A stretch of 64,000 nucleotides of DNA from a virus (IMGVR_UViG_3300045988_180675:32001-96000), one strand, 5' to 3'. Counted from the first letter of the stretch, positions 19,699 through 62,859 are shown. Made by a program: numbers and translations. The notes: generated by a model not told the origin, from the letters alone.

Positions 19699-19699
19699 A

Positions 19700-42167: not shown

Positions 42168-42273
42168 TTTCTTCCTCTTTTCTATTTTTATCCATGATCA
42201 TCAAATGTGTCAATATTATTATGTTATACCAAATAAAAAGAAAAAAAGCCGTGAATAATCACGACTCTTTTTT

Positions 42274-43098
42274 TTAGAATGGTAAATCATCTGACGTAAT
42301 GTCAAAATTATTTGCGTAATAATCTCCACCTGTAATAGCATTAAACTGAGCTTCACTCATCTGATCTGCAACTGGTTGCTGAACAGGAGTCTGTACCTGT
42401 GGCTGTGGCTGATATGTCTGTGCCATTTGCTGTGGTTGAGCTGTTGGCTGCTGGTACATCTGCTGAGCTACTGGTTGCTGATTTGCTTGGACAGGCTGTT
42501 GCCCCTTCTTTCTAACAATTACTGGAGTAGCAGCAATAACGATACCTAAGTTATTGAATGCTTTGCCGTCTTCTTTAGTTGTCTTGTAAACGGATAAATA
42601 TCCACTCACTGCAATTAAATCACCTACTTGATAGATTGTTCTATCCAAATTTTCGAGTAATTTCTTACTAAAAGAAGCAAACATAAATATCGTCTTTGGG
42701 TTTTCTTTGCTACCATAATTTAAAGCAAATGAAAAACCAGTTGGGAACAATCTTGCAACTGTTCCAACAAAGAATCCTGCCGCTTTATCATCTCCTCCTG
42801 GAACTAATGTGACGCTGTTGGCATTAACCCTGTAATATGTTAAGCCATCTTTACCTTCATCAGATGATAAATAACCTGCTACAGCAACAGGGGTGCCTTT
42901 TTTTGCAAAGCGTTCAAGATCTGACGCAGATCTACCATCAAATACTGAAACATTAAAAAATGATGCATTTCCAGTTTCATTTTGGTCATTTGATTTGTTG
43001 ACAGCCATACTAAAGTGAGCACACTTCTTGCCATCTTTTGTTGTTGATACTTTGATCTCTGAAGCTACGTTTCCTGATACTAAAATACTATTTGACAT
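42274..43098 (-). CDS. ssb: Single-stranded DNA-binding protein with two OB-fold-like halves and a Q/P-rich tail ending DDLPF
   Basis: Start at MSNSILVSGNVASE (ATG 43098, RBS AGGAGGAAAATAAA). First half: ...FFNVSVFDGRSA...GTPVAVAGYL. Second half: ...IFMFASFSKKLLENL..GDLIAVSGYLSVYK. The tail QQPVAQQMYQQP...ends in DDLPF. Confidence 0.7.
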   Translation of the reverse strand: MSNSILVSGNVASEIKVSTTKDGKKCAHFSMAVNKSNDQNETGNASFFNVSVFDGRSASDLERFAKKGTPVAVAGYLSSDEGKDGLTYYRVNANSVTLVPGGDDKAAGFFVGTVARLFPTGFSFALNYGSKENPKTIFMFASFSKKLLENLDRTIYQVGDLIAVSGYLSVYKTTKEDGKAFNNLGIVIAATPVIVRKKGQQPVQANQQPVAQQMYQQPTAQPQQMAQTYQPQPQVQTPVQQPVADQMSEAQFNAITGGDYYANNFDITSDDLPF

Positions 43099-43267
43099 TT
43101 TATTTTCCTCCTTTGCCCTCTTTTTGGGACTATCATAACAAATGTCTAATTTATTTGATATTTTCCATGTCATCAAATAAATACAATTCAATTATGTAAT
43201 AAAAATAAAATTAAAAAAATGAATTTGTAGCAAATTTGAGTAGATATAGCATAATATATACGAAAGG

Positions 43268-44014
43268 ATGTATAAATTATTTATGTTAGATAACCATGCT
43301 ATTGAAGTATATGAAAATTATTTATTAGGGAAAACAAAAGTCCTTAGTTTAAAAGAGCTTATTAAAAAGGATAAAATTGATGATATTGTAGAGGACGAAC
43401 AAGAAAAGATCAACCAAAGAATTGAAGAAGCAAATAGTGTTATTCAAGAGAAAAAAGCAATCGCAATTATCGCTTATGCTATTACAAAAATATTGAGATG
43501 GACACCTGTATATGCTGCCGATAATTTAACTAGTGATATTGTTGATCAACTAAAAATCAGGGGACTTTTTAAATATATCGATACTCCAATGACAATTGTT
43601 GCAACAGGAGATTACAAATGGATTATCAAGAAGGTATTTCCATTAGAAGTACCATATAATATGTGTGATCAAGCTGTTGATATCTATAAAAAGATTTTGA
43701 ACGGACAAATGAAGTCATTCCCACATGAATACTTTAAGGATGAACATGGAGAAGAAAAGCTTGCCGCAATATTAAAATATTACATTGCTACAAATTTTGC
43801 CATTTCTTCAGTTGAAGATCTTTATATAGCATTTGGTAGAGATAAAAATAGAGTCAGCAAGCTTGACAAAGCCTGTTTGTATTATGCCTATTCTGGCATT
43901 TATGAATCCCCATTAGAACTCTTACACTATTCCATAGGAAAAGATAAGGATGATTTTTTATACGAATTTTATAGCTATATGAACGTTTTTGACGAAGTTG
44001 CGAAAGAATTTTGA
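43268..44014 (+). CDS. Hypothetical protein upstream of the pilin gene
   Basis: 248-aa ORF. No motif recognised. Confidence 0.65.
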   Translation: MYKLFMLDNHAIEVYENYLLGKTKVLSLKELIKKDKIDDIVEDEQEKINQRIEEANSVIQEKKAIAIIAYAITKILRWTPVYAADNLTSDIVDQLKIRGLFKYIDTPMTIVATGDYKWIIKKVFPLEVPYNMCDQAVDIYKKILNGQMKSFPHEYFKDEHGEEKLAAILKYYIATNFAISSVEDLYIAFGRDKNRVSKLDKACLYYAYSGIYESPLELLHYSIGKDKDDFLYEFYSYMNVFDEVAKEF

Positions 44015-44110
44015 AAAAATTGTGGATAAAGTGTGAATAAAATAGCATAATCATTAGTGAACGACACGTTCACTTCTTTTATTTATATAAAAAAGAATAG
44101 AAAGGGAAAA

Positions 44111-45859
44111 ATGAAGAAGAAAATCATTAAAACGGCTGCATTTGGAGTTGTAGCCACAGGTATTGCATCTGCTTTATTACCTGTTTCCGCAGAAGGAGTC
44201 ACTCCACCATCAGCTACAACAAAGGCAACTATTACAGTGCAGAATGTTGATACAGCTGATACAAACGCTGAAGTAAAGGCTTACCGTATTGTTAAGCCAG
44301 AATTCAATGCACACGGTTTACTCGGTTATAAGGCTGTAGATGGCATTACAATTGCCGACTTAGCTAAGCCAACATCAGAGGAAGTACAGGCTGCTGTATC
44401 CTACATCTTAGCTCATCAGACAGAGTTTGAACCTGTTTCCTTAACTCGTAATGGTACAGATTTTACAGCAGAAGCTCCAGCAGGCGAATACGTTGTATTA
44501 GTTTCTAAGTCAAATACAACTGTTTATAACCCTGCAATCGTATCTGTAAACATTCCAAACGCAAACGTAGACGCTGCGGATGGCGGTACAGTCAACCTAA
44601 ACAATGCCTTTGCAAATGGTAAGGTAGCATTCTTAAAGAGAAGCACACCAACTATGAAAAAGAACATCATTGTAGATGGTCAGAAGAAGAAGGGCGACTT
44701 GGTATCTGCTGATGGCGTTGGTTCAACAGTTGCTGATGAAATTACTTTCCAAATTGATACACAATTACCATCCTATCAAGTTGGCGAAAATGGAACAGTT
44801 TACAAGAACCCACGCTTTGAAATTTCAGATAAGCTACAAGATGTATTTGAAAACATCTCTGAGATCAAGATCCAGAATGCTGCTGGGGATGATTTAGTAG
44901 CAAATACAGACTATGAGTTAGTAAACGGTGTAGGCAGCAAGGACTTTACAGTTAAGTTCAAGAGCGAATACTTAATGGCTCATGGTAACGAAGCAGTTAA
45001 GATCGTTTATAAGACAAAACTTACTTCTACAGAAACAAACCAGAACTTTGCAGACAACAAGAACGTTGCTACATTGAAGTATTCTAACGATCCAACAAAT
45101 GAACAGTCCGTTAAGATTGTAAAGGATAAGACTTATCATTATACATTCTCTATCGACGGAAACATTGATGGAACATGGGAAGAATCAGGTAGTACAATTG
45201 ATGGCAAGCAAGGCAAACATCAGACAAATGAATTGAGTAAGGTATCAGAACGTACAGAATCTACTACTTGGGAAGAAAAAGAGGACGAAACACACACATT
45301 TACAAAGCATTCTACCAAGGCTTTAGCAGGTGCTAAGTTCGGACTCTATAGTGATGAAGATGCTCAGACAAAGGTTGCAGAAACAACTTCTACTGATAAG
45401 GGCTTCATGAACTTCCATGGTTTGGATGCTGGCACATATTACTTAAAGGAAATTTCTGCTCCAGCAGGTTATTCTTTAAATAATACAGTATACAAGATCG
45501 ATATCGTTGCAAACCTTGATGAAGAAGGCGTATTAACAGACTATTCTATTTCAACAGAAACAAAGGTTGGAGCTGCTTGGAACAAGGTTGGCGAAATGAA
45601 GTATACAAATACTAAGGAAGTAGATAACAAGGCTTTATTAGATACTGGTGATGAAAACCCAGACTATGGTAAGGTTAAGAATACTATCGTAACAGCGATC
45701 GACAACCCTACACAGATCGAAAATACTAAGTTAGCTGCATTACCTTCTACTGGTGGTGTTGGTACAGTAATGTTTACTGTAGCTGGAATCGGCTTATTCT
45801 GCGGATTTGGCTATGCATTTATGCAAGCTCGCAAAGAAAAAGAAGAATTAGCGAAGTAA
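44111..45859 (+). CDS. LPXTG-anchored pilin-like surface protein
   Basis: Start at MKKKIIKTAAFGVVATGIASALLPVSAEG (ATG 44111). E-box-like GTYYLKEISAPAGYSLN. C-terminal LPSTGG plus TM helix plus RKEKEE. Confidence 0.85.
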   Translation: MKKKIIKTAAFGVVATGIASALLPVSAEGVTPPSATTKATITVQNVDTADTNAEVKAYRIVKPEFNAHGLLGYKAVDGITIADLAKPTSEEVQAAVSYILAHQTEFEPVSLTRNGTDFTAEAPAGEYVVLVSKSNTTVYNPAIVSVNIPNANVDAADGGTVNLNNAFANGKVAFLKRSTPTMKKNIIVDGQKKKGDLVSADGVGSTVADEITFQIDTQLPSYQVGENGTVYKNPRFEISDKLQDVFENISEIKIQNAAGDDLVANTDYELVNGVGSKDFTVKFKSEYLMAHGNEAVKIVYKTKLTSTETNQNFADNKNVATLKYSNDPTNEQSVKIVKDKTYHYTFSIDGNIDGTWEESGSTIDGKQGKHQTNELSKVSERTESTTWEEKEDETHTFTKHSTKALAGAKFGLYSDEDAQTKVAETTSTDKGFMNFHGLDAGTYYLKEISAPAGYSLNNTVYKIDIVANLDEEGVLTDYSISTETKVGAAWNKVGEMKYTNTKEVDNKALLDTGDENPDYGKVKNTIVTAIDNPTQIENTKLAALPSTGGVGTVMFTVAGIGLFCGFGYAFMQARKEKEELAK

Positions 45860-45929
45860 AGAAATAAAAGGAAGTGTAAAAGCTTCCTTTTTTTTATATG
45901 TTTTGATGAATATATAGCATAATATAAGC

Positions 45930-46796
45930 ATGAAAAAGAAAAGAAAAAAGTTTATGGTCCAATTGTTTTGCCTTTTGGGTATGACGATCGGGCTTGGAAT
46001 CATGGGATATCCAATTGTAAGTGACTTATGGAACAAATATCGAAATGACCAGATTGCCGATGAATACGAAAATAACGTAAAAGAACTTGATAAAGAACAG
46101 ATTGATAAAATGTGGGCTGATGCAAAAGCTTATAATGATCAACATACAGTCAACTTCGTAAAGGATGTTTTCCATGATAATGAGGACTATGTATTATCAC
46201 ATCCTTATGATCAGTTGTTAAACCCAACTAATGATAATGTTATGGGATATATAGAAATTCCGAAAATCAACGTTCGTTTAGCTATTTATCATGGTATCGG
46301 TGAAGATGTATTATCAAAAGGAGTTGGACATGTAGAAGGAACAAGTTTACCTATCGGTGGCGTTGGGACCCACACAGTATTAAGTGGGCATAGAGGACTT
46401 CCATCGGCAAAATTGTTTACCGATCTTGACCAGATGAAAGAGGGAGATCTGATTTACTTGCACGTCTTGGATAAAACAATGGCTTATAGGGTAGATAAAA
46501 TTGATACAGTTCTTCCTGAAGATACAAGTGGGCTTGCAATAGAACCAGATAGCGATCTTATTACACTGATAACTTGTACGCCTTATGGTGTTAATTCTCA
46601 TAGATTACTTGTTAGAGGAAAAAGAATTGACCCAGTTCCGATCGAGCAAAAGAAGATTACTCCGATTGAACAGGTTTCTAGTATGCCAATCAAAGAAAAA
46701 GCTTTAGCAATTGGGTTGGTTATTTCTCCTATCTTATTAATTGTTTTAGTGGTAAGTGACAAGAGAAAAGAAAAAAAGAAAAAGCAGGGCAAATAA
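45930..46796 (+). CDS. srtC: Class C (pilin-polymerising) sortase
   Basis: N-terminal TM helix. VLSGHRGLP. Active site TLITCTPYGVNSHRLLVRG (TLxTC). C-terminal TM helix plus a basic tail, as is typical of class C. Confidence 0.9.
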   Translation: MKKKRKKFMVQLFCLLGMTIGLGIMGYPIVSDLWNKYRNDQIADEYENNVKELDKEQIDKMWADAKAYNDQHTVNFVKDVFHDNEDYVLSHPYDQLLNPTNDNVMGYIEIPKINVRLAIYHGIGEDVLSKGVGHVEGTSLPIGGVGTHTVLSGHRGLPSAKLFTDLDQMKEGDLIYLHVLDKTMAYRVDKIDTVLPEDTSGLAIEPDSDLITLITCTPYGVNSHRLLVRGKRIDPVPIEQKKITPIEQVSSMPIKEKALAIGLVISPILLIVLVVSDKRKEKKKKQGK

Positions 46797-46805
46797 GCCT
46801 TGCTT

Positions 46806-47354
46806 TTATTTTTGGGGCGGAATATATCCATTCGATATCAGAGAATAGAAACTTGGAATATTTACATCAAAGTTTTCTTCTTTGTTGTATCTCTCGCATG
46901 CCATGGCATACTTTGTAGTCATGCCGCCTTTACGTCGAAACTCTTCTTTGTTTAATGCTCCTTTTGGTCTTTTGCTTCCTTCTATTGAAACCATGTTTCC
47001 GATATCTTTTAATCCGATCGATAATTCACGATAGTTGTATTTCTTGTTGACCTTTTTGGATTCGTAATAAAATACCTTCGCTGTAAATCTAACTATATCA
47101 CCAATAAAGAATTTGTTATCAAATAAAGTCTTGTTAAACATTGCATCTGTCACTAAAACATTGACATGTTGGCGAAAGGGTAATCCAGAACCAAGTTCTT
47201 TTACATCATGGAAGCAAATCGTAGGGAAACATTTTAGACGTTTTCCGCCAGATATTTCTTTAATGATCGGCGTCATAGAATAAAGTGTTCCTTCAAATTG
47301 AAGATTTTGCCCTACTACTTCATGGAAGTATGGATCGATAGGTTTTCTTTTCAT
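46806..47354 (-). CDS. Hypothetical protein
   Basis: 182-aa ORF, RBS AAAGGAGTTTATTT. Confidence 0.65.
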   Translation of the reverse strand: MKRKPIDPYFHEVVGQNLQFEGTLYSMTPIIKEISGGKRLKCFPTICFHDVKELGSGLPFRQHVNVLVTDAMFNKTLFDNKFFIGDIVRFTAKVFYYESKKVNKKYNYRELSIGLKDIGNMVSIEGSKRPKGALNKEEFRRKGGMTTKYAMACERYNKEENFDVNIPSFYSLISNGYIPPQK

Positions 47355-47463
47355 AAATAAACTCCTTTCTTTTACTCTTAAATTATATCACATAACAGTA
47401 TAAATTTCTAGTATTGCATAACAGTATATGGTATAATAAATATGAATAAGAAAGGAGCATACG

Positions 47464-48147
47464 ATGCTGAAATTTTATGATATGCCAGTTGGGCTTGGAA
47501 AAGATAGAGAAAAGAGTCTACTATTTTACTTGAACGATATGGCACAGAAAACAAGTGGGTTTGTTCTTGAGTATTGCCCACAACTAGTGACATTGGATAA
47601 TGTCCCAGATGATATTGTACGGGTTAGGCAGATGTTAACGCCAGCAACTATAACCGATTTAACGGAACAAGATAACCTGATTACATCTGTTGTCAGAAGA
47701 ATTCATTCTATTGAGTATTATGATTTTGAATATCCTGATAATTATGTTGCTTTTAATATATTAGAAGCTGCATTTATTACAGAAGTTGCTTTCATGGTTG
47801 CCATGATCAAAGACGGGAAGGAAAAAGAACTAAAGACTTTTATTGAAAAGAATTATAAGATCAACGATGAAGATCTGAGGAGATATTTAAAAGTTAGGAA
47901 GTACGTTCCAGAGGTCAAAGGGAAACTCGATCTGAACAAAATTGAAGAGTTCGAAGGGTTTTATTGTGATTTAGAGGTTACGAAAGATACTGAATATCAT
48001 GGGATTGAAACTTTAAAAAAATTCTACAAGAAAAACAAACTGAATCTCTTTGAAAGCCCAATGATAATGTTAGCTTGTTTCATGAGCAGAGAACAGATTA
48101 TCAAAATGTTATTCCAGTTAAAAGAAGAAAAGAAAGAAGAAAAATAA
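47464..48147 (+). CDS. Hypothetical protein
   Basis: 227-aa ORF, RBS AAAGGAGCATAC. First gene of the PhoH operon. Confidence 0.65.
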   Translation: MLKFYDMPVGLGKDREKSLLFYLNDMAQKTSGFVLEYCPQLVTLDNVPDDIVRVRQMLTPATITDLTEQDNLITSVVRRIHSIEYYDFEYPDNYVAFNILEAAFITEVAFMVAMIKDGKEKELKTFIEKNYKINDEDLRRYLKVRKYVPEVKGKLDLNKIEEFEGFYCDLEVTKDTEYHGIETLKKFYKKNKLNLFESPMIMLACFMSREQIIKMLFQLKEEKKEEK

Positions 48148-49578: not shown

Positions 49579-49596
49579 AAGAAGGAAGGGAAAAAG

Positions 49597-51050: not shown

Positions 51051-51081
51051 AAAAAAGAGGGTAAATTAGCCCTCTCTTTTT

Positions 51082-51606: not shown

Positions 51607-51607
51607 T

Positions 51608-52189: not shown

Positions 52190-52304
52190 AATTTTCCTCC
52201 TTTGGCTCTTTAGCCTTATCCATGTTATCAAATGATACAAAAATATTATGTGATATAGGAAGAAATAAAAAAGGACAATATATTTTTGCCCTTTTAAAAT
52301 ATTA

Positions 52305-52916: not shown

Positions 52917-52937
52917 TTTATATATCCTCCTTGGCTC

Positions 52938-55427
52938 TTAGTCTAATTGCATCTTTGCAATGGAAATCTTCATGTGCTTATTGTTTGTCTTGACTTCTTC
53001 AATAATAGGTTCTTTTTCTTCTTGCTTTGGTTCTGGTGCAGGAACGAACACCTGAATATTGTACATTGTCTTGACTGTTTGAGCAATGATATTCATCATC
53101 ATTTCATTAAAGAGCTGATAGCCCAAACGCTTATATTCTAGCTTAGGATCCTTCTGACCATAAGCCTTGATACCAATCCATTGCTTTAACTGTTCCATAT
53201 CGTCTAAATGGATCTTCCAGTTTGTATCAATGATACGTAATAAAACCTGACGTTCTAATTGACGCATCTGCTCTGGATCTACAAAGAGAGCTTCTTTTTC
53301 TGCATAAACGTTCATTGCACGTTCTACAACTGCATTCAATACAGTCTCCTTGCTTGTTCCGATTAATTCTTCATTACGTACACATAAGTTTGGATAGATT
53401 GCATATAACTGGTTGTTTAAAGAATCGAACTCTTCTTTTGTTAGTTTCTTGCCATTCATGCTCTTTGAAACGATGCCATCAAGATGATCCTTGACCATGC
53501 CTGTGATTGTTGCGTACATGTTGCCCTTATCTAAGACCTTGTTGCGTTCTGCATAAATGATTTCACGCTGATGGTTGTTGACAATATCGTACTCTAAAAG
53601 ATTCTTACGGATGCCGTAGTTGTTATCTTCAATACGATGCTGAGCATCTGTAATAGCTGCCAACAAGATCTTGTTTGTGATCTCTTCTCCTATTGTATGA
53701 TTCTTTTCATAGATAGAGAAGTAGTCAGCAGAACCAAAACGCTTTACAAGATTATCTTCTAAAGATAGGTAGAAACGAGATTCACCTGGATCGCCTTGAC
53801 GACCTGAACGACCACGTAACTGATTATCAATACGACGAGATTCATGACGTTCTGTACCAATAATCTTTAAGCCGCCATTCGCCTTTGCTTCATCATCTAA
53901 CTTGATATCTGTACCACGACCAGCCATGTTTGTTGCAATCGTTACTGCTCCAGCAATACCTGCCTTAGCTACGATTTCAGCTTCCTTGGAGTCATTCTTT
54001 GCATTTAATACTGTATGTGGAATACCACGCTTAGATAATGCACGGTCTAAAAGTTCAGAAACATCAATACTAGCTGTACCAACTAATACTGGCTGACGCT
54101 TCTTATAAGCCTTTTCTACTTCATTGCAGATTGCTTCATATTTTTCCTTCTTTGTTAAGAAAACAACGTCAGTTAGATCCTTACGAATAACTGGCTGATG
54201 AGTAGGAACTGCAACTACATCCATACCATAGATATCTTGGAATTCCTTTTCTTCTGTAATCGCTGTACCTGTCATACCAGCCTTCTTTTCATACTTGTTA
54301 AAGAAATTCTGGAATGTTACAGTTGCTAAAGTTTGGTTTTCCTCTTTGATTTCAACGCCTTCCTTTGCTTCGATAGCTTGGTGCAAGCCATCAGAGAAAC
54401 GACGACCGTCCATTACACGTCCTGTAAATTCATCAACGATCATAACTTCGCCATCACGAACAATGTAGTGTTCATCCTTGTGCATTAGGTAGTTTGCACG
54501 TAATGCAGTGTTGATGCAGTGCTGTAATTCAATATTTGTTGAATCAGAAAGATTCTCGATTGCAAAGACCTTTTCAGCCTTCTTGATTCCATTTTCTGTT
54601 AAAGTGATGACTTGATCCTTTTCATCCTTGATATAGTCACCTGTTTCTTCATACTTTTCGCCCATCAAAGAGTCGATCTTGCTGAATTCCTTAGCCTTAC
54701 CACAAACCAAAGACTTAACGAACATGTCGGCATGCTTGTATAACTCTGTTGACTTTCCACTGCCACCAGAAATAATAAGTGGAGTACGTGCTTCGTCGAT
54801 TAAAACGGAGTCAACTTCATCCATGATAACATAGTGTAAGCCACGCTGAACTCTATCAGCTGCTTCCGTAGCCATGTTGTCACGCAAATAGTCAAAACCT
54901 AATTCGTTATTTGTAATGTATGTAATATCTGAACCGTATGCAATCTGACGCTCCAAAGGGGATGAATAGTTTAATACTACACCTACAGTTAAGCCTAAAA
55001 ACTCGTGTACTTTGCCCATTTGCTCTGCATCACGAGATGCTAAGTAATCATTTACTGTTACGACATGCACACCCTTTCCTGTCAAAGCATTCAAGTAGGC
55101 TGGCATCGTTGAAACCAGTGTCTTACCCTGTCCAGTTGCAAGCTCACCGATTCTTCCTTGGTGTAATAAAATACCGCACATCACCTGCTCATCGTATGGG
55201 AACATGCCTAAAACACGACGGTCAGCTTCACGTACCACGGCAAATGCCTCTGGTAAGATCTTGTCTAACTTTTCGCCATTTTCAATTCTCTTTTTGAATT
55301 CGTTTGTCTTCTGCTTTAGTTCTTCGTCTGATAATAATGTAATCTTCTTTCCAAACTTCTCAATCTTCTTTAAGGTTGGCTTTAACTTCTTGATTTCTTT
55401 TTCACTTTTTGTTTTAAATAACTTCAT
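52938..55427 (-). CDS. secA: SecA-family preprotein translocase ATPase (accessory, SecA2-like copy; no C-terminal zinc finger)
   Basis: 829 aa. ...FAVVREADRRVLGMFPYDEQVMCGILLHQGRIGELATGQGKTLV...VVTVNDYLASRDAE..., DEVDSVLIDEARTPLIISG, TNMAGRGTDI. Promoter TTGTAA (55521-55526), 17 nt, TATAAT (55498-55503). Confidence 0.9.
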   Translation of the reverse strand: MKLFKTKSEKEIKKLKPTLKKIEKFGKKITLLSDEELKQKTNEFKKRIENGEKLDKILPEAFAVVREADRRVLGMFPYDEQVMCGILLHQGRIGELATGQGKTLVSTMPAYLNALTGKGVHVVTVNDYLASRDAEQMGKVHEFLGLTVGVVLNYSSPLERQIAYGSDITYITNNELGFDYLRDNMATEAADRVQRGLHYVIMDEVDSVLIDEARTPLIISGGSGKSTELYKHADMFVKSLVCGKAKEFSKIDSLMGEKYEETGDYIKDEKDQVITLTENGIKKAEKVFAIENLSDSTNIELQHCINTALRANYLMHKDEHYIVRDGEVMIVDEFTGRVMDGRRFSDGLHQAIEAKEGVEIKEENQTLATVTFQNFFNKYEKKAGMTGTAITEEKEFQDIYGMDVVAVPTHQPVIRKDLTDVVFLTKKEKYEAICNEVEKAYKKRQPVLVGTASIDVSELLDRALSKRGIPHTVLNAKNDSKEAEIVAKAGIAGAVTIATNMAGRGTDIKLDDEAKANGGLKIIGTERHESRRIDNQLRGRSGRQGDPGESRFYLSLEDNLVKRFGSADYFSIYEKNHTIGEEITNKILLAAITDAQHRIEDNNYGIRKNLLEYDIVNNHQREIIYAERNKVLDKGNMYATITGMVKDHLDGIVSKSMNGKKLTKEEFDSLNNQLYAIYPNLCVRNEELIGTSKETVLNAVVERAMNVYAEKEALFVDPEQMRQLERQVLLRIIDTNWKIHLDDMEQLKQWIGIKAYGQKDPKLEYKRLGYQLFNEMMMNIIAQTVKTMYNIQVFVPAPEPKQEEKEPIIEEVKTNNKHMKISIAKMQLD

Positions 55428-55550
55428 ATATAATCTCCTTTTCTTGTATACTGTTTAGGAATCTTTTGCCCTAAATCTCTTCTTTCTTTATATACTTATT
55501 ATAGCATAACAGTATGATTTTTACAAGTCTTTCCTATTCTTTTCAACAAA

Positions 55551-55680
55551 TAAAAAAGAGCCGAAATTATATCGGCTCTAACGAAAGTGTGCCTTATAGC
55601 ACTGTAGAAAAAAGAGTGGTACTGAGAAAACAAGAACACTTTACAGTGTTTTGCAAAATGGGATATGTTCCGTTTTGCTT
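55551..55680 (-). ncRNA. Candidate sRNA between the primase terminator and the secA promoter
   Basis: Minus-strand promoter TTGATA (55710-55715), 17 nt, TAGAAT (55687-55692). Terminator GAGCCGA (55558-55564) / TCGGCTC (55572-55578) plus T-run. Internal hairpin AACACT-GTAA-AGTGTT. No RBS-preceded ORF. Confidence 0.3.
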
Positions 55681-55741
55681 AATTACATTCTATTCTTTTT
55701 GCCTTTATTTATCAACAAAAAAAGCCAAGAAATCATCTTGG

Positions 55742-57352
55742 CTATTTTTTTAGTGGTAATTGATACATTGCTGCTAATACATTCGAAAGGTCATGGTTGA
55801 ACTTCGTTCTTGTATCAGGTGACATCTTATTATAAGAATCAACGTGATACAGATCCAGCAACATGCTAAAACGTTCTTCGTAGATAGCCTTGAACTCATC
55901 AAACTTTATTGACTTTAATAAAGCTCTATAGTTTCTATTCTGAAGTATCAGATCATCAAAGCCTTTCCCATATTCTTCACGCCACGTAAGAACAAATGGG
56001 TCCAACCCTAATTCTTTTAGAGCTTCTGATAAAGCACTTAATTGTCTGTAAACAGAACTATTTTGTAGTACATCTGCATCAAACATTAAGAATGCTTTAT
56101 TTCGAGAGCCTTTTATAGACTTCAGCATTGGAATAATAGAACTCCAAGAGCTTACTCCAGAAACATAGATTGCAATGTTTCCAGCCTTGGCAATTGCTTC
56201 AGCCTTGAATCGACCTTCTGTAATACAAATGGATGATTTATCCGTCATGGATTTTGGATAAATGATTCCACCTGGAGATCCAGAACTAGCTCCACCATAA
56301 ATACCAGCTTCTCCATTTAAGGAGGCTGATGAAAACCATGTGTAGCGAGGAGCATTATCGCTCTTTTTGTATGCTCTTATCTGGATTCCTACGCATTTTC
56401 CGTTTTCGTCTTTTGCCATGATCCCAATTCCAGCTCTGCCTGTAAATTTTACTCGTCTTGAATTGATATCAAGGTAGAATCCTGGAACTAAAGGCATCTG
56501 TTTTACGATCTTATTTAGAAGCTCATGTTTTTTGAAAGCTTCTTTTTCTTCTCTTGTAAGTTCCTCAAACTTCTTCTTAAAAGATTCATAAGCAAATCTA
56601 TCTCTGATCAGCTTGAACATACGTCTTACAAAAGTGCTACTGTGATCACTTCCCTCTGTTACTGGGAATGTAAAGTAGTTTTTTAGATCTTCTTCACATA
56701 GACCTCTTGTGGTAATCAGATGTTCACGGTCTTTTGGTGAAAGCCCAGATACAAGTGCCATAGCTGAATATACAATGTGGATCACATCGGGATCAGCCTT
56801 TGGAGCCTCGGTTTGGTTGATTGCAACATTTTCCTGAGACTTAACTGCATCGAAGTTTACCTTGATGGCATTTTTATTCTTATATTCTTCTTTGGATATA
56901 TAGCCCATTCGATAACATAAGTGATAAACTGCATCATTAAATTTTGTAATACCGTAAAATCTCATTTCGAAATCAATTGTTGACTTTCCAAAACCATCTG
57001 TAAAGCAATACCACATCGCTTTGCTTGGTGTAATTACAAAAGAACCAGGGACCTGATCGCCATGGAACGGACATAACGCATAAGCATTTTGTCCTTTCTT
57101 TGGTGATACTGCCAAAATAGCTTCTTTTGAAAATGGAACCATTTTCTTATTGTGATCATAAATTGGGGTTAGCCCGAATTTCATCACAGCCGTAGTATAT
57201 GGATCGCTTGAAGTTGAAACTTCATTATAGATCTCATCTGCTGTTGCATCTGGATAATTTTTACTAGCTGTTGCTATTACCCATTGAACAGGGGCTTTTT
57301 TGGCGAGTGTCATTAGTTCGCCAATTTTTCCTTTCTCCCATTTCTTCATCAT
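55742..57352 (-). CDS. DnaG-like primase: degenerate CHC2 zinc-finger region plus Toprim domain
   Basis: CPFHGDQVPGSFVITPSKAMWYCFTDGFG (CHC2-like, second Cys pair lost). ICITEGRFKAEAIA ... FLMFDADV (Toprim E and DxD). The second ATG (57349) has better RBS spacing. Confidence 0.75.
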   Translation of the reverse strand: MMKKWEKGKIGELMTLAKKAPVQWVIATASKNYPDATADEIYNEVSTSSDPYTTAVMKFGLTPIYDHNKKMVPFSKEAILAVSPKKGQNAYALCPFHGDQVPGSFVITPSKAMWYCFTDGFGKSTIDFEMRFYGITKFNDAVYHLCYRMGYISKEEYKNKNAIKVNFDAVKSQENVAINQTEAPKADPDVIHIVYSAMALVSGLSPKDREHLITTRGLCEEDLKNYFTFPVTEGSDHSSTFVRRMFKLIRDRFAYESFKKKFEELTREEKEAFKKHELLNKIVKQMPLVPGFYLDINSRRVKFTGRAGIGIMAKDENGKCVGIQIRAYKKSDNAPRYTWFSSASLNGEAGIYGGASSGSPGGIIYPKSMTDKSSICITEGRFKAEAIAKAGNIAIYVSGVSSWSSIIPMLKSIKGSRNKAFLMFDADVLQNSSVYRQLSALSEALKELGLDPFVLTWREEYGKGFDDLILQNRNYRALLKSIKFDEFKAIYEERFSMLLDLYHVDSYNKMSPDTRTKFNHDLSNVLAAMYQLPLKK

Positions 57353-57482
57353 TTTCCTCCTTTTTTTTTATACAAATATATATACTATCATTTGATCTCC
57401 ATGTCATCAAACAATTCACATATATAATGCAATAAAACAAGAAATAAAAAAAAGGCTATATTGTTATATAGCTTTTCCTTAT

Positions 57483-57665
57483 TTAGATTACTTTTGGAAA
57501 CACTTGTTCTGTCTTTGCAGTAATGATACGCCACACTTTTTCAGCATTCTTCTCAAATGCTTGTAAGAATCTAGCTTCATTGTGTACTGCCTTTTTATTT
57601 TTGGATTCACACAATAAGACATATTTCCCTGTGTTTTTGTTGTAGCTGTAGAGACCGTACTTCAT
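57483..57665 (-). CDS. Small hypothetical protein
   Basis: 60-aa ORF. Terminator at 57451-57478. Confidence 0.5.
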   Translation of the reverse strand: MKYGLYSYNKNTGKYVLLCESKNKKAVHNEARFLQAFEKNAEKVWRIITAKTEQVFPKVI

Positions 57666-57667
57666 TT

Positions 57668-57985
57668 TTATTTTCCTCCATTTGTTCTTTCTTTTAATTC
57701 TTTTTCGATTTCTTGAATTGCTTCTAAGAACTCGATCTTTGATGTTACTTTTCTTTGCATTGCAAACGCTTCTACTTCAGAACGAAGTGCAACGTGGCGT
57801 AATGCACAAGCATTAATAAAACAAACATCTGCATACTTCTTTTGAGTTGCAGAAAGACGGATCATCAGGTCGTATCCGATTTCTTTTGAACCCCATACAA
57901 CAATCGTATTGTTGCTTTCCGTAACTGTTTTAACAGCCTTGTAACCTTCATCACGAAGGTATCCTTCAGTCATAGTGACTTTCAT
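57668..57985 (-). CDS. Hypothetical protein
   Basis: 105-aa ORF, RBS AAAGGAGGAAAATTAAAAA. Confidence 0.55.
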   Translation of the reverse strand: MKVTMTEGYLRDEGYKAVKTVTESNNTIVVWGSKEIGYDLMIRLSATQKKYADVCFINACALRHVALRSEVEAFAMQRKVTSKIEFLEAIQEIEKELKERTNGGK

Positions 57986-57988
57986 TTT

Positions 57989-58204
57989 TTAATTTTCCTC
58001 CTTTTCGTACAATGCCTTTGTTTCTTCCGTCATGTAATAACGGTTCTTCTTGGAACAGTTTGACTCTAAAACGATCGCATCATCTAATATCTCTATTACA
58101 TGACATTTGAGTTTTAGATCTTCCGCATGGAAATAACCATGTTTGGATAATAGCTTGCCTGCATGATAGATGAACTTGTCGCCGATTTTACAATTGATAA
58201 GCAT
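57989..58204 (-). CDS. Small hypothetical protein
   Basis: Start moved to MLINCKIGDKF (ATG 58204, RBS GAAGAGGTGG) to reduce the overlap with the upstream gene to 17 nt. Confidence 0.45.
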   Translation of the reverse strand: MLINCKIGDKFIYHAGKLLSKHGYFHAEDLKLKCHVIEILDDAIVLESNCSKKNRYYMTEETKALYEKEEN

Positions 58205-58520
58205 TTGCCACCTCTTCGATCGGTAAGATCTTATCCTTGTATTTAGCGACATTTACGCCTTTTACGGTCGTAAGCAATCCAAAATCATTAGAGTTCTCGA
58301 TGATTTCAGCATCTTTTTCCGATACTTCGCAGAATGTAAAACCAAAAGTGTCAATAATTTCGATATCTGATGCACCCTCATACTCACATTCTTCATCTTC
58401 TGTGATAATGTTACAAATATGATCAACCATCATATCGATCATCCCTTTTGGATCTGTTCCAGTCATTCCAGCCTTAAAGCCATCCATTTGTAGATCATAC
58501 ACTGCAAAAAACTTTTTCAT
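58188..58520 (-). CDS. Highly acidic small protein
   Basis: 110 aa, rich in D/E (EDEECEYEGASDIEIIDTFG..., SEKDAEIIENSNDF). RBS ATAGGAGGAAAATTAT. The P-C motif lies upstream. Confidence 0.55.
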   Translation of the reverse strand: MKKFFAVYDLQMDGFKAGMTGTDPKGMIDMMVDHICNIITEDEECEYEGASDIEIIDTFGFTFCEVSEKDAEIIENSNDFGLLTTVKGVNVAKYKDKILPIEEVANAYQL

Positions 58521-58633
58521 ATAATTTTCCTCCTATGTCTGTTTTCTCCATGTTATCAGACTATTTATACATATATTTTGTAATATGAACAGAAAATAAA
58601 AAAGAGGACTTATTAATCCTCTTTTAATTTTCT

Positions 58634-59245
58634 TTAAAATGGTAAGTCGTCTGCACCTAAGTTAAGACCATATTCTGGCATTGGCTGTGGCTGACTAGGT
58701 TGAGCCATTGGTACAGGCTGTTGATACGGCTGCTGCATTGGTTGTGGAGCAACTTGTGGCTGTGGTTGATACATTGGCTGTGCAGGTTGTTGATACTGTG
58801 GCTGTGGTACGGCTTGAACCTGTGGTTGAGGAATTGGCTGTTGATACTGTTGTTGAGCAACATAAGGATCATACTGTGGTGCCTGTTGAGCTACTGGTTG
58901 AGCCTGTTTGTACTTCTGATTTGTTTCCTTGCTTTCTACAAACTCCTGGGATTCAACAATAACTTCTGTTACATATACATTCTTTTGTGTAGTCTTATCA
59001 ATGTATGTGCGTGTACTTAATCGACCTACGACTGCTAACTTGATTCCCTTCGCAAATGCTTGGGCGGCAAATTCTGCCATCTTGTCAAAACATACACAAC
59101 TAATAAAGTCTGCGGCTGTACCTTCTTGATCCTTTTGTCGAGGACGGTCTACTGCGATCGTATAATTACAGATCTTCTTCTGATTTTGTGTAACGTATAA
59201 CTGTGGATCACGAGATAGTCGTCCGATTAAAATAACCTTGTTCAT
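58634..59245 (-). CDS. ssb: Canonical single-stranded DNA-binding protein
   Basis: MNKVILIGRLSRDPQL...AADFISCVCFDKMAEF...GIKLAVVGRLSTRTY, a Q/P-rich tail and terminal DDLPF. Promoter TTGACA (59308-59313), 17 nt, TAGTAT (59285-59290). Confidence 0.9.
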   Translation of the reverse strand: MNKVILIGRLSRDPQLYVTQNQKKICNYTIAVDRPRQKDQEGTAADFISCVCFDKMAEFAAQAFAKGIKLAVVGRLSTRTYIDKTTQKNVYVTEVIVESQEFVESKETNQKYKQAQPVAQQAPQYDPYVAQQQYQQPIPQPQVQAVPQPQYQQPAQPMYQPQPQVAPQPMQQPYQQPVPMAQPSQPQPMPEYGLNLGADDLPF

Positions 59246-59351
59246 GTTCTTTTCTCCTTTATAGGTATTCCTATTGATACATATATACTATCATAACAGT
59301 ATGCATGTGTCAAGAAGAAAAGAAAAGCGTACCATTTGGCACGCTCTTTTT

Positions 59352-60167
59352 TTAATTTTCCAACCAACTATCGCCACTATTGTAGTCGATTGTTACTCCT
59401 GGCTGCACATTGTAACAGAAGATGTTAAACATAACAGATTCTCCCTTATCCTCTAAAGACATTGCTTCCATTAAGACTCCTCTAGCTACAAGTTCATCTC
59501 CTATAAAAATAGGTGTTACTCTGTATGCTATATGAGAATTTGGATTTGCCTTTAGATATCCTGCGATCAGGTTTTCAAAAGGTAACATTCCATCTACATT
59601 TAGATATCTTGTTCCAGTGATCAAGTTCTTTGGATTTGCATTTTCACCTGTTAATTGATAACCAATAAGGTGACAACGATTATATAAATACTTTCCATTT
59701 ACAAAATCATACTTCGCAATCTTCCAACCTGTTGGCTTGACTTCCTTGATAGAGCCACGAGGCTCTGTAGGCATGATATCTTTACCGATAATGGCAAATG
59801 TTTCTGTACATCTTCCAAGCCGATCAAGTTCTCCATAAGTAGCATAGCTTGTATACTCCTTTGGAACCATGTAATCATCGTAGAAGTATGGTTTGTTATC
59901 ATTGACAACGGTATAAGGCTCCCCAGAAAATTCTGGTAGAGAACTATAGTCGAATGTCGATGGTTCAGAAGATGTTTTTTCTTCCGCCTGCTTTTCAACC
60001 TGCTTTTCTTCTACGGTATTTTCACTTTCTTTTTCTTGGATCGGTGCTAATCTTTCTTTCTTGTCTTCCTTATCTAACACGTATGTTTTTGTGATATATG
60101 CTAATAATAAAGAAATAACAAGAAAGAAAATCTTGGAAATGAATCTGTTTCTTCTATACTTTCTCAT
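59352..60167 (-). CDS. Membrane-anchored DNA/RNA non-specific endonuclease (EndA/NucA-like)
   Basis: N-terminal TM anchor IFFLVISLLLAYI. ...YGELDRLGRC...KPTGW...YLYNRCHLIGYQLTGENANPKNLITGTRYLN matches the DNA-entry-nuclease family pattern. Confidence 0.8.
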   Translation of the reverse strand: MRKYRRNRFISKIFFLVISLLLAYITKTYVLDKEDKKERLAPIQEKESENTVEEKQVEKQAEEKTSSEPSTFDYSSLPEFSGEPYTVVNDNKPYFYDDYMVPKEYTSYATYGELDRLGRCTETFAIIGKDIMPTEPRGSIKEVKPTGWKIAKYDFVNGKYLYNRCHLIGYQLTGENANPKNLITGTRYLNVDGMLPFENLIAGYLKANPNSHIAYRVTPIFIGDELVARGVLMEAMSLEDKGESVMFNIFCYNVQPGVTIDYNSGDSWLEN

Positions 60168-60169
60168 TT

Positions 60170-60607
60170 TTAATTTTCCTCTCTTTTAAACACTAATTTC
60201 TTAACAACGCAATCGAAATTGTGATCTTCTACGACTTCTTCTTCATAGAAACAAAATTTGTTGCTAGGCAAAACTACACGCTTATCTGATGGCAGTTTTT
60301 GATCAACACAATATAGTATTACATCAGAACAATCTTCAATGTATCTCTTGTAATCTTCTGTTAGATCAATCAGAAATACATCATCGTCTTTTCCTAACTG
60401 ATCTGATGTGCTTACGATAAGCTTTGTCTTTTGTTTTGGGTTGATTTCTAAGACTGTAAAGAATAATTTGCTTTTCGCTGCAAAACATAAAGTTTCGTTT
60501 GCGTTTAAATCATTTAACATTCTTTCAATCAACTTCTTATCAAAAATAATTTCTCTGTTGTTAAACGTATAGCCACCGACTTTATCACATAAGGCAATCA
60601 TTTTCAT
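60170..60607 (-). CDS. Hypothetical cytoplasmic protein between the kinase and nuclease genes
   Basis: 145-aa ORF, coupled at both ends (ATGA overlap upstream; stop 2 nt from the nuclease ATG). Confidence 0.6.
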   Translation of the reverse strand: MKMIALCDKVGGYTFNNREIIFDKKLIERMLNDLNANETLCFAAKSKLFFTVLEINPKQKTKLIVSTSDQLGKDDDVFLIDLTEDYKRYIEDCSDVILYCVDQKLPSDKRVVLPSNKFCFYEEEVVEDHNFDCVVKKLVFKREEN

Positions 60608-61155
60608 AAATTGCCCTCCTTTATGATTTTGTTGATAAACTCCGCAGCCTGTTTAGGAGATAATACATCTAAGATAACCATATTTGCTAGTTCCTCTGCT
60701 TCAGCAAAATCGTTTCTGTCTGCCATAAGTCTTCTTGTTGCTTCAGCTGGATCATCACCACGCTTTTTAAGGCGTTCTAATAGCGTTTCTTCGCCTACTT
60801 TAATATAGACGATACAGATATCATTTTTATCATTTGTCGCCGCCAGAACGCTTCTGACGCCGTTTGGAGTAAGGACGATGCACTCATCTCCTTCTCTTTC
60901 GTAAGCTTCTTTTCTGCTTCCATAGTACCAACGACCATAGATGGTATCGAAATAATCGTATTCTGCATACTCTCTCTTTCTGATATTATCTATAAAATCC
61001 TTTGGTGCAATGAAGTTGTAGTCGATTCCATTCTGTTCGCCTTCACGCATTGGGCGTGTGGTGTCTGTGATGATACGGGAATATCCTAGCTTTTCTAGTT
61101 CCTTGGCAACGCTAGTCTTCCCCGCACCTGTTTTTCCGATCAAAATTACTTTCAT
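60604..61155 (-). CDS. Guanylate kinase-like (d)NMP kinase
   Basis: Start at MKVILIGKTGAGKTS (P-loop). ITDTTRPMREGEQNGIDYNFI matches TTRxxRxGExxGxxYxF. Confidence 0.8.
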   Translation of the reverse strand: MKVILIGKTGAGKTSVAKELEKLGYSRIITDTTRPMREGEQNGIDYNFIAPKDFIDNIRKREYAEYDYFDTIYGRWYYGSRKEAYEREGDECIVLTPNGVRSVLAATNDKNDICIVYIKVGEETLLERLKKRGDDPAEATRRLMADRNDFAEAEELANMVILDVLSPKQAAEFINKIIKEGNL

Positions 61156-61169
61156 TTTATTTTCCTCCT

Positions 61170-61328
61170 TTACCATTCTGCATTTTTGATCAAGAGCTTT
61201 TCACGTCTACGTGAATACTCCTTTTTGCTATGAAACACAGCGGAACGAGTCGTTCTGACTCTTGGTCTTGTGTGTTTGATAGCATCAAGCATCATTTGTT
61301 TTGATGCTTCAACATATTTTCTTTTCAT
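61170..61328 (-). CDS. Small basic protein (52 aa, not in ORF track)
   Basis: RBS AAAGGAGGAAAATTAT. Product MKRKYVEASKQMMLDAIKHTRPRVRTTRSAVFHSKKEYSRRREKLLIKNAEW. First gene after a P-C motif. Confidence 0.5.
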   Translation of the reverse strand: MKRKYVEASKQMMLDAIKHTRPRVRTTRSAVFHSKKEYSRRREKLLIKNAEW

Positions 61329-61441
61329 ATAATTTTCCTCCTTTGGCTTTCTTGCCCCATGTCATCATACTAAAGAACACTATTATTGTGCTATAAAGAT
61401 GGCAAAAAGAAAAGCTGCTATATAAGCAGCTGATCTTTTCT

Positions 61442-62731
61442 TTAGAAATCTTCCATTGGGATATCCACTGGGTAATAAGCATCCATTGGAATATCCTGAT
61501 AATTTGCAGGAGTTGGAACCTGTTGATACATCGGCTGCTGTACTGGAGCATACGGCATAGCTGATTGCATCATTGGTTGCTGATACTGTGGTTGTGGTGC
61601 AACCTGAGTCTGTGGTTGTTGATAAGCCTGCTGAATTGACTGTTGGTATGGCTGTTGCATTGGCTGCTGATATACTGGAGCAGCTGTCTGCTTAGCAGAT
61701 TGTTCCTTTTGTAGCTTTGCTTCCATACGATTCTGACGATCTAAATCATCAGCGATCTGGAACTGTTTTGCTGCCAACATATCTTCAAAACGACGCATGT
61801 GCGTCTCCATATTATGCAGGCATTCAAACCAAGAAGCAGCAGAGAGCTTGAATCTGTTTTCACATTCATCTCGCTTATCAGAACGCATTACATTTAGTGT
61901 ACCAGCATTAGTTCTAACGACCTTAGCCTTATAGCTTTGGACTCTGATCTCAACAGGATAACGGTTTCCAATTGTCCATGTAATATCTAATTCGTTTACA
62001 GGGCAATATTCCTGAGCATTATCCCCATGAATTAATGGTCTTGGACCAGATGAGAAAATCGTTGTTACACCTAATTGTAATTCTTCTGGAGCAACTTCAA
62101 CGGCTGCATCTAAAAGATTGTTTTGAGCCATGAAAATAGCTTCGTCAATTGCCGCAATGAGTTCTCTGTTGGCAGGGAATTTTTCAAGGTTCTTAGCTAA
62201 GAATTCTCTTTGCTTTACAAGAGTATTCATTCCACCTTCTTCCTTGATTACTTCTAAAGGTGTCTTTCCCTTTAAATTTCCAATTTGAAAAGCTTTTCCA
62301 CTTGCAAGTTTTCCAACTTGAGTAGCTGCCTTTTTCTGTGGTATTGGCTTTCCTAGCATCATCGCTGTAATACATCTTGTTCCAAACAATACATTATCAA
62401 TCACGGTAGCAGTTGCCTTCTGCAATTGATACATCTGCGTTGCAAATGGTAATGCAAGCATCGTTTCTGCATTCATTGCTGAACGTGAAGCCTCAATAAC
62501 ACCAAACACTTCCTTTACACGAAGATTGGCTTTAGAGTTATGAGATACTCCATTTTGACTTCCGATGATCGCAAAGATAAAACGAGAGAATTTCTCGTCG
62601 TAGATCTTGTAAGGTGATCCCACCTTTTCTGTATCGATCGGTGTCAAATGCCCTTCTACGGACAATGTTTGAGAGGATGTCTTTGCAGCAAATACCTCTC
62701 GTGGGTAGTTATTCTTCTTCTTTTCTGTCAT
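61442..62731 (-). CDS. Uncharacterised 429-aa protein with an SSB-type Q/P-rich C-terminal tail ending DIPMEDF
   Basis: The N-terminal 330 aa have no motif I recognise. The tail AAPVYQQPMQQPYQQSIQQAYQQPQTQVAPQPQYQQP...YYPVDIPMEDF parallels the tails of both SSBs in this window. Confidence 0.7.
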   Translation of the reverse strand: MTEKKKNNYPREVFAAKTSSQTLSVEGHLTPIDTEKVGSPYKIYDEKFSRFIFAIIGSQNGVSHNSKANLRVKEVFGVIEASRSAMNAETMLALPFATQMYQLQKATATVIDNVLFGTRCITAMMLGKPIPQKKAATQVGKLASGKAFQIGNLKGKTPLEVIKEEGGMNTLVKQREFLAKNLEKFPANRELIAAIDEAIFMAQNNLLDAAVEVAPEELQLGVTTIFSSGPRPLIHGDNAQEYCPVNELDITWTIGNRYPVEIRVQSYKAKVVRTNAGTLNVMRSDKRDECENRFKLSAASWFECLHNMETHMRRFEDMLAAKQFQIADDLDRQNRMEAKLQKEQSAKQTAAPVYQQPMQQPYQQSIQQAYQQPQTQVAPQPQYQQPMMQSAMPYAPVQQPMYQQVPTPANYQDIPMDAYYPVDIPMEDF

Positions 62732-62859
62732 TTTTTCATTTTCCTCCTGACATATAATTTTCTTCCTTTATCTAATCATGCTCCATGTAATCAAATAAGG
62801 ACATTGTTATTATGCAAGAAAGAAGAGAAAGAAAAAAGGCAAATCGATACATCTGCCTC

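Follow-up and report, generated by a model that had tools for sequence, protein, structure and literature searches.

A short conserved sequence that lies upstream of DNA-metabolism operons in a 64,000-nucleotide (nt) stretch of DNA (IMGVR_UViG_3300045988_180675:32001-96000; referred to as the window) may be the leader half of a terminator-promoter-leader cassette that is targeted by a plasmid-encoded small RNA (sRNA). We put the probability of this reading at roughly 0.5. Its full extent, namely that more than 20 replication, repair, and establishment operons share a leader tag of 15 to 20 nt and would all be controlled by one trans-acting plasmid sRNA, is slightly less probable. The element that carries these operons is read as a conjugative megaplasmid (~200 kb) of a human oral Firmicute.

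Counts confirm that the motif is real and far above chance. The 13-mer TNTGATNACATGG has six exact copies in the window, all on the minus strand and each where a preliminary description of this DNA had placed it, whereas shuffled sequences lead one to expect 0.05. The copy that had been listed upstream of recJ is the motif with one extra base (TTTGATGATCATGGAT, 42190-42205). When TTTGATNNCATGGAG was searched with at most one mismatch, seven matches were found versus 0.19 expected, and one of these, on the plus strand at 10111-10125, has no mismatches. A position weight matrix scan of the window added a full cassette with the tag TTTGATGTTATGGAG at 20014-20028. TGATTACATGG at 59867-59877 is intragenic, lacks an upstream box, and looks like a chance match. 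The copies are strand-locked to gene starts, in line with the earlier proposal of a dedicated regulon signal of a mobile element.

In every copy, the motif is the downstream half of one fixed cassette, referred to as class C (Table 1). An intrinsic terminator directly precedes each copy: first come the GC-rich hairpin and T-run that terminate the preceding gene, and then a T-rich TTTYTT, a hexamer, 12 to 16 nt, and the motif. A further 22 to 64 nt, not the 24 to 80 nt given before, separate the motif from the start codon. The strong ribosome binding site (RBS) that had been assigned to all sites is present at most of them (AAAGGAGGAAAAT-like), but that of recJ is weaker (GAGGAAGAAAATG). The upstream hexamer is CATAAT, with the variants CAAAAT, CATTAT, and CACAAT.

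We anchored 12 sites, picked by the two boxes alone, on the upstream hexamer. T was found in 12/12 sites at -33 to -30, C-12 in 11/12, A-11 and T-7 in 12/12, T-1 in 11/12, and G+1 in 9/12. A bipartite-pattern scan of metagenome contigs then yielded ~60 family loci and 97 distinct cassettes. In this larger set the invariance of A-11 and T-7 is due in part to selection, whereas the 12 sites were not selected for it. The hexamer is CATAAT in 71/97 cassettes, CAAAAT in 13, and CACAAT in 7. Features outside the selection are also strongly conserved: T-17 (96/97), a purine at -13 (97/97), A-6 (90/97), and T-1 (92/97). A purine stands exactly 7 nt after the hexamer in all 97 cassettes (G in 86, A in 11), and the distance from this T/purine step to the motif varies between 5 and 9 nt. 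The sequence CATAAT-AAATAT-G resembles TATAAT-AAGTAT-A, found in canonical promoters of this element, and the CATAAT-type hexamer has the two bases that a sigma-A -10 box cannot do without, the A at position 2 and the T at position 6. Most likely, therefore, the CATAAT-type hexamer is the -10 element, with a predicted start 7 nt downstream at G (or A), which would place the motif in the transcribed 5' leader.

The preliminary description had assigned the boxes differently, with T.TGAT as the -10 and ACATGG as the start region. In its general form, this reading takes TTRCAT as the -35 and TnTGAT as the -10 of a specialized promoter that an element-encoded sigma factor or RNA polymerase would read, with transcripts starting in ACATGG/GGAG. 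The TTACAT and TTGCAT hexamers on which it relied are real and conserved, but in another frame: conservation covers (R)CATAATA, a block shifted 3 nt downstream, and peaks on CATAATA rather than on TTRCAT. A spacer of the sigma-70 type would allow the spacing TTRCAT-15..17-TnTGAT. In addition, a scan with the canonical sigma-A consensus listed the promoters of SSB (59313-59285), SecA, and others and left the class C sites unlisted on the gene strand; the SSB, SecA, and sRNA promoters are canonical, so a second promoter class exists. Plasmid sigma regulons have a precedent in SigN of pBS32 (PMC6751061), and Inocles, related oral megaplasmids, were reported with a sigma-factor gene annotated RpoS (PMC12340149). 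Nevertheless, TnTGAT lacks the A at position 2 except in its TATGAT variants, the T/purine step is fixed relative to CATAAT but variable relative to the motif, and the commonest form of the tag carries a 1-nt insertion inside the proposed discriminator. A tblastn search with sigma regions 2 and 4 of ~750 kb of redundant family sequence, covering part of the element, found no sigma-like open reading frame (ORF), and no Sigma70 occurs among the Pfam annotations of the family parts covered. In a comparison by eye, the known consensuses of sigma B, D, E, F, G, H, K, L, and ECF, of SPO1 gp28/gp34, of the ComX cin-box, and of SigN do not fit both boxes; sigma-54 and T7-like promoters were rejected because there is no conserved GG/GC pair and the spacing varies. 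We consider the specialized promoter quite improbable, and two further observations described below, a leader hairpin and an sRNA complement, also speak against it.

Across the 97 family cassettes, the motif generalizes to TYTGAT, 3 to 4 variable bases, and YRTGGAG. The commonest form is the 16-mer TTTGATGATCATGGAG, of the recJ type. The center of the tag tolerates a 1-nt insertion and free variation, whereas TGAT and TGGAG are invariant. Orthologs in different relatives carry different tag centers, which indicates that the flanks of the tag, and not its center, are under selection.

About half of the leaders can form a hairpin at their predicted 5' end. In a register search with shuffled controls, 46/97 leaders contained a hairpin of 9 to 14 bp whose 5' arm begins at the predicted +1 and takes in UUUGAU(G) and whose loop holds (G)AUCAUGGAGAAAA. 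The outermost pair falls at -1 to +4 of the predicted +1 and never further upstream, though the search was given more sequence. Leaders that beat the 5% level of their own shuffles numbered 29 of 97, against ~5 expected. One position of the lower stem is occupied by compensatory pairs (C-G 27, A-T 9, T-A 3), and G.U pairs are numerous, which indicates that the structure is selected on the sense strand only, that is, as RNA. Because this covarying hairpin starts at the predicted +1 and includes the 5' half of the motif, it argues that the motif is transcribed. It needs the sequence upstream of ACATGG as RNA, contrary to a start within ACATGG. The hairpin noted earlier at 43149-43182 does exist (11 Watson-Crick pairs and one G.U pair), but its loop does not hold the whole motif; TTTGATG forms the 5' arm and ACATGGA alone lies in the loop. 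A single-strand promoter of the Frpo/EGeRS1 type does not match the cassette, which is ~90 nt long and contains no imperfect hairpin of at least 300 nt that would rebuild -35 and -10 boxes in single-stranded DNA. Its hairpins are the terminator and the 9- to 14-bp leader stem, which holds no promoter boxes.

A transcribed tag could also act in cis without any sRNA, as a stabilizer or standby site (hairpin plus a GGAG resembling a Shine-Dalgarno [SD] sequence), as the site of an RNA-binding protein, or as a tiny upstream ORF (AUG/GUG/UUG-GAG...). In Bacillus, mRNAs (cryIIIA, ermC, aprE, SP82) are stabilized by 5' stem-loops and by STAB-SD elements, which are SD-like; here, too, about half of the leaders have a 5'-terminal hairpin that begins at the predicted +1, and GGAG never varies. 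Nearly every copy has A, G, or U immediately before UGGAG, as an NUG start would, and short frames of the MEKSIK* type recur. However, UUUGAU is conserved far past the needs of pairing while its partner strand varies freely, and short-leader cassettes keep the tag without the hairpin. The putative upstream ORF has no SD sequence in front, and we rejected a conserved one because neither its frame nor its length is conserved. An element acting purely in cis would also leave as coincidence the invariant sRNA complement (~0.01 expected), and we regard it as unlikely.

Some leaders in the family are long (locus L004 at 2082, locus L140 at 7490; window 20014-19951). These contain an AAUAAGGYGGAAAAU block after the tag and an AGCC-N4-GGCU hairpin abutting the SD sequence. 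AAGGUG-N6-AUG is present in some of them as well and could be where a short overlapping ORF begins.

The plus-strand copy at 10111-10125, which had been described as facing an sRNA candidate, proved meaningful. It sits inside a predicted minus-strand sRNA gene (10047-10234) located between two minus-strand genes. The putative promoter consists of TTGACT, a 17-nt spacer ending in TGa, and TAATAT, and an intrinsic terminator follows ~185 nt downstream. The predicted fold (z = -4.8) comprises two stem-loops, a long unpaired linker, a small hairpin, and the terminator, with UCCUCCC as the apical loop of stem-loop 2. The linker sequence CUCCAUGACAUCAAA, predicted to be unpaired, is the exact reverse complement of the tag form UUUGAUGUCAUGGAG; the plus-strand copy is therefore the antisense of the tag within the sRNA. 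Across all family loci, this is the only intergenic tag copy outside a cassette, and a tag complement in the sRNA has a chance expectation of ~0.01. The specialized promoter leaves it unexplained.

Four further sRNA variants were retrieved via the neighboring protein family. All five keep CTCCATGACATC (12/12 positions), the UCCUCCC loop, and the terminator, and the flanks of the anti-tag differ. Two variants share the architecture but differ in the sequence of stem-loop 2 (fold z = -4.6), and one has an A-to-G change opposite U3 of the tag, where a G.U pair is still possible. The candidate sRNA has the hallmarks of a trans-acting base-pairing RNA: its own predicted promoter and terminator, compensatory stems, and conserved, apparently unpaired seeds complementary to its would-be targets. 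A search against Rfam 15 gave no matches in the window at gathering thresholds and only chance-level E values (0.2 to 0.3) around the sRNA. The sRNA terminator (AAGTGCC...GGCACTTTTT) has a close paralog at 8872-8964, between the genes at 8233-8871 and 8965-9327, and it seems that the element duplicates its terminator-promoter modules or exchanges them internally.

Duplexes predicted between the sRNA linker and class C leaders range from -15.3 to -23.1 kcal/mol. By comparison, the best duplex among 35 other upstream regions in the window is -14.1 kcal/mol, with a mean of -7.5 kcal/mol. The median for the 97 family leaders is -21.5 kcal/mol. Several variants in the tag arms are wobble-compatible with the sRNA (C to U frequently, A to G several times), and an A-to-U change in the center creates a pair.

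A DNA operator just downstream of the sigma-A start, bound by an element-encoded repressor or activator, would account for the inverted copy in another way: a double-stranded site works in either orientation, and the copy in the sRNA gene would simply be another operator. One conserved sequence upstream of many operons with establishment-type genes (SSB, primase, nuclease, PARP) matches the logic of p576 (PMC6294495, PMC8708921), and the 16-nt form of the tag contains a perfect palindrome, ATGATCAT. Most copies are asymmetric, however, and the TGAT and TGGAG half-sites are 3 or 4 variable bases apart, which a rigid DNA-binding dimer would tolerate poorly. The cassettes contain no direct-repeat heptamers of the p576 type, and a gene for a regulator was not identified. 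Known operators (LexA/Cheo, Fur, DnaA box, NrdR, CtsR), again compared by eye, do not fit both boxes. Neither a strand-specific hairpin with G.U pairs nor an inverted copy in the unpaired part of a structured sRNA would be expected of an operator, and we regard one as unlikely. Of the three possibilities originally offered for the motif (a special promoter, an operator, or a 5'-leader RNA element), the leader RNA fits best.

Our reading of the tag as an sRNA target can be put as a mechanism. Class C operons would be transcribed from a promoter lacking a -35 element, with the mRNA starting at the G or A 7 nt past the CATAAT-type -10 and the tag beginning 5 to 9 nt into the message. In about half of the cassettes, the 5' half of the tag would form the upper stem of a 5'-terminal hairpin, with (C)AUGGAG in the loop. 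The sRNA, expressed constitutively from its strong canonical promoter (10268-10240), would expose the tag's reverse complement, CUCCAUGACAUC(A/G)AA, on a linker that is single-stranded, and would pair with the tag of every class C mRNA, presumably at the loop first and then by invasion of the stem. Its C-rich UCCUCCC loop could possibly pair with the strong SD sequence as well. The whole class C set would then be co-regulated post-transcriptionally by the level of the sRNA. As for the direction, we lean toward repression or destabilization, via an opened 5' hairpin and/or an RNase III substrate, since pairing would open a protective 5' hairpin and form a long duplex. The set would thus be expressed transiently once the plasmid has entered a new cell, which is also the logic of Reg576 of p576 (PMC6294495).

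Several observations weigh against this interpretation. The predicted +1 and the sRNA are themselves predictions, as are expression of the sRNA and its pairing in vivo. With no -35 element, no TTGACA 16 to 18 nt upstream (the terminator T-run occupies -35 to -30), no TGn extension (-14 is G in just 5/97 cassettes), C at -12, and no listing in the sigma-70 scan, the putative class C promoter may be weak or dependent on a further factor. RNAalifold, run on a plain MAFFT alignment of 40 leaders, returned no consensus structure, because of register slips, and the evidence for the hairpin comes from our own register search. The UUUGAU half of the tag is already paired intramolecularly in about half of the leaders. 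Frequent changes at tag position 2 (U to C or U to A) and changes of the central G to A or U are mismatches to the sRNA. Variants with A to U and A to C before TGGAG exist, and an NTG pattern fits a start codon equally well. All five sRNA variants share one anti-tag core, so there is no sRNA-target covariation. Lastly, the anti-SD match of UCCUCCC to the class C RBS extends over only 6 nt and is generic, and for this reason we rejected an extended pairing between the sRNA loop and the class C RBS.

Table 1. Class C cassettes, candidate sRNA gene, and associated features (window coordinates unless a locus is named)
Feature	Coordinates	Strand	Details
Cassette, 429-aa (amino acid) gene with SSB-like acidic tail	62781..62837	-	T-run 62832-62837; CATAAT 62809-62814; predicted +1 G 62802; tag TTTGATTACATGGAG 62781-62795
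Cassette, operon of 52-aa basic protein, kinase, 145-aa protein, and nuclease	61355..61408	-	-10-like CACAAT/AATAAT 61382-61390; tag TATGATGACATGGGG 61355-61369
Cassette, operon headed by 110-aa acidic protein	58546..58603	-	CAAAAT 58575-58580; predicted +1 A 58568; tag TCTGATAACATGGAG 58546-58560; GUCUG/CAGAC hairpin surrounds tag
Cassette, CHC2/DUF3854 primase	57397..57453	-	CATTAT 57424-57429; predicted +1 G 57417; tag TTTGATGACATGGAG 57397-57411; 5' hairpin UUGUUUGAU/AUCAAAUGA
Cassette, 193-aa and 174-aa genes	52218..52272	-	CATAAT 52245-52250; predicted +1 G 52238; tag TTTGATAACATGGAT 52218-52232; small GGCU/AGCC hairpin adjoins RBS
Cassette, tandem-OB SSB	43163..43219	-	CATAAT 43191-43196; predicted +1 G 43184; tag TTTGATGACATGGAA 43163-43177; 12-bp 5'-terminal hairpin
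Cassette, recJ	42190..42247	-	CATAAT 42218-42223; predicted +1 G 42211; 16-nt tag TTTGATGATCATGGAT 42190-42205
Cassette absent from the preliminary description	20014..20070	-	CATAAT 20043-20048; predicted +1 G 20036; tag TTTGATGTTATGGAG 20014-20028
Operon under the 20014..20070 cassette	19951..18000	-	83 aa, 83 aa, 117 aa, 366-aa Api92-like
Candidate sRNA gene, ~185 nt	10047..10268	-	TTGACT 10263-10268; 17-nt spacer; TGaTAATAT, -10 at 10240-10245; two stem-loops; apical loop UCCUCCC 10165-10171; linker CUCCAUGACAUCAAA 10111-10125; terminator 10047-10079
RRXRR-HNH and IS605/TnpB insertions in relatives	L004 12824-14119; L004 19130-20219; L155, L174, L238, L260		

The window is part of a 199,422-bp JGI metagenome contig. 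It was obtained in two assemblies that are rotated relative to each other, and the element is therefore probably circular. Relatives of 160 to 206 kb, near-identical or 77% to 95% identical, occur in many samples, some of them labeled human oral metagenome. Window genes include RecJ, two to three SSBs, a CHC2/DUF3854 primase, SecA, PhoH-PIN, sortases, LPXTG pilins and adhesins, an S26 signal peptidase, and a T2SSE-type ATPase. The relatives add a VirB4-like ATPase, an actin-like segregation protein (ALP), a topoisomerase, RecD2-type and RecG helicases, DnaE, a Ser/Thr kinase, and IS605/TnpB insertions. The primase shares ~30% identity with those encoded by Clostridium and Bacillus megaplasmids, and its matches comprise 301 in plasmids versus 3 weak ones in phage records. 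This megaplasmid-type primase, with almost no phage relatives, and the gene repertoire underlie the assignment to a conjugative megaplasmid of an oral Firmicute. We rejected a phage origin on the same ground; megablast against phage records also gave nothing useful. The Streptococcus salivarius bacteriocin megaplasmids (pSAL813 type) were likewise dismissed, with no DNA or protein match in PLSDB. The element itself was not found in PLSDB or in the phage collection. A scan of viral contigs with TTTGATNACATGGAG gave only single chance matches, and the bipartite-pattern scan of genome contigs gave 15 single chance matches and no family member; the element is therefore absent from GTDB species representatives.

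The window contains eight cassettes, and the relatives have ~24 families of first genes. Besides the primase, SSBs, and RecJ, they comprise DnaE (1390 aa), an SMC/RecF-like ATPase (702 aa), proteins with a PARP domain or similar to Csx16, and numerous small proteins of unknown function, among others. As in EGeRS2/Reg576, one regulatory sequence precedes several establishment operons of a conjugative plasmid; unlike there, paired direct heptamer operators are missing from the cassettes and no gene for a ribbon-helix-helix (RHH) repressor was identified.

Two other promoter classes were observed in the window. In a second class, at 6.8 to 32 kb, TTGCTAAAAAGAAnATAnTATGnTATAAT precedes the leader AAGTATAGAAAGAAAGAGAG. 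These promoters are of the canonical sigma-A type, carry a TG extension, and stand before at least 10 small unknown genes (e.g., 8871, 9509, 9990, 12516, 16112(+), 24887, 25639, 26916, and 27050(+)). A third class has a fixed spacer and the sequence ATACTGTTATGnTATAAT and serves the sRNA (10240-10268), SSB (59285-59313), SecA (55498-55526), a phosphoesterase gene, and two divergent gene pairs (~36740, 39800-39930, and 47360-47460); the ACTGTTATG conserved in it may be an operator. The gene-poor region 32937-33582 holds ~14 copies, ~46 nt apart, of a 20-nt imperfect palindrome, TGGGCTACTnTAGTAGCCCA. This array is a candidate centromere, the family encoding the actin-like ALP, or a candidate iteron origin. 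At 52938-55427 lies a full-length SecA homolog of 829 aa with all SecA domains, which together with the sortases, signal peptidase, and LPXTG pilins would make up a plasmid-borne kit for secretion and surface display. In relatives, a gene for an RRXRR-HNH endonuclease is inserted between the kinase and the 145-aa gene, and the relatives also differ by IS605/TnpB (Cas12f-like TNB) insertions.

Recognition of large plasmid-like elements in oral streptococci and their relatives is recent, and for ~95% of the genes of these elements no function is known (PMC12340149). In such elements, the tag would mark out, at the sequence level, a co-regulated module (DnaE, primase, SSBs, RecJ, the SMC-like ATPase, and the PARP-like and Csx16-like proteins), whose small unknowns could be anti-defense or establishment factors. 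It could also serve as a probe for family members in metagenomes, and tag and anti-tag form a mutable pair with which the timing of the element's replication or establishment genes could be tested. If the sRNA link is true, a post-transcriptional regulon is built into a mobile element, and an RNA-based route to transient expression of establishment genes stands beside the routes through a protein repressor (Reg576) and through single-strand promoters.

Upstream sequences that define a regulon (p576, pLS20), plasmid sigma regulons (SigN), and sRNAs with C-rich loops are already known. New here are the cassette, its ~100 distinct instances in an uncharacterized family of oral megaplasmids, and the predicted layout of one sRNA and many leaders on a mobile element. 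By niche and repertoire (RecD-like helicases, DnaE, RecJ, sortase, LPXTG proteins, signal peptidase), the family resembles the Inocles of oral Streptococcus, for which no regulatory motifs were described (PMC12340149). Inocles measure 245 to 395 kb with 24% to 32% GC, compared with 160 to 206 kb and ~35% GC here. The SigN regulon of pBS32 likewise places plasmid-wide DNA-metabolism genes behind one non-sigma-A consensus, ATTTACGTTT-N-AGATATAAA (PMC6751061). In our family, by contrast, no sigma gene was found in the parts searched, and the likely start lies upstream of the conserved block. Clostridium botulinum pCB111 (NC_025146.1 1-21612, locus L124) has a repeated module of its own before at least 11 genes, adjoining a homologous primase: TGnAATAATAA (an extended -10), 12 to 19 nt, TTATGGCT, a small GGCU/AGCU hairpin, and the RBS. 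The layout is analogous to that of class C, but homology could not be shown, and we do not treat the module as a homolog of the cassette.

The closest likeness in regulon design is with EGeRS2/Reg576 of p576 and EGeRS1 of pLS20, where operons of a conjugative Gram-positive plasmid share an upstream sequence. In p576, a conserved regulatory sequence precedes each of several establishment and DNA-handling operons (PMC6294495, PMC8708921). In both plasmids, it is the recurrence of the same sequence before several operons that defines the regulon. The p576 sites combine strong canonical sigma-A promoters with paired TTATCCC heptamers, to which an autoregulated RHH repressor binds, whereas class C cassettes have neither -35 elements nor heptamers. 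EGeRS1 is 420 to 750 bp long, GC-rich, and multi-hairpin, in contrast to an AT-rich cassette of ~90 nt. Moreover, the conserved block of our family lies in the predicted transcript and is matched by an sRNA.

The candidate sRNA resembles the RsaE/RoxS-type sRNAs of Firmicutes in being structured, with an unpaired C-rich (UCCUCCC) loop and possible SD binding. In the case of RoxS and yflS, pairing close to the 5' end of the mRNA alters 5'-3' decay. The present candidate differs in being plasmid-encoded and in that its main seed is a 12- to 20-nt complement to the tag of more than 20 operons of the same element rather than a generic match to SD sequences. Like CopA/CopT, RNAI/RNAII, and FinP/traJ, a small RNA of a plasmid would pair with the loop of a leader hairpin and extend into the stem. 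Those antisense RNAs are cis-encoded, are fully complementary, and have one target each, whereas the sRNA proposed here would be trans-encoded, 10 to 50 kb from its predicted targets, and would act on many of them.

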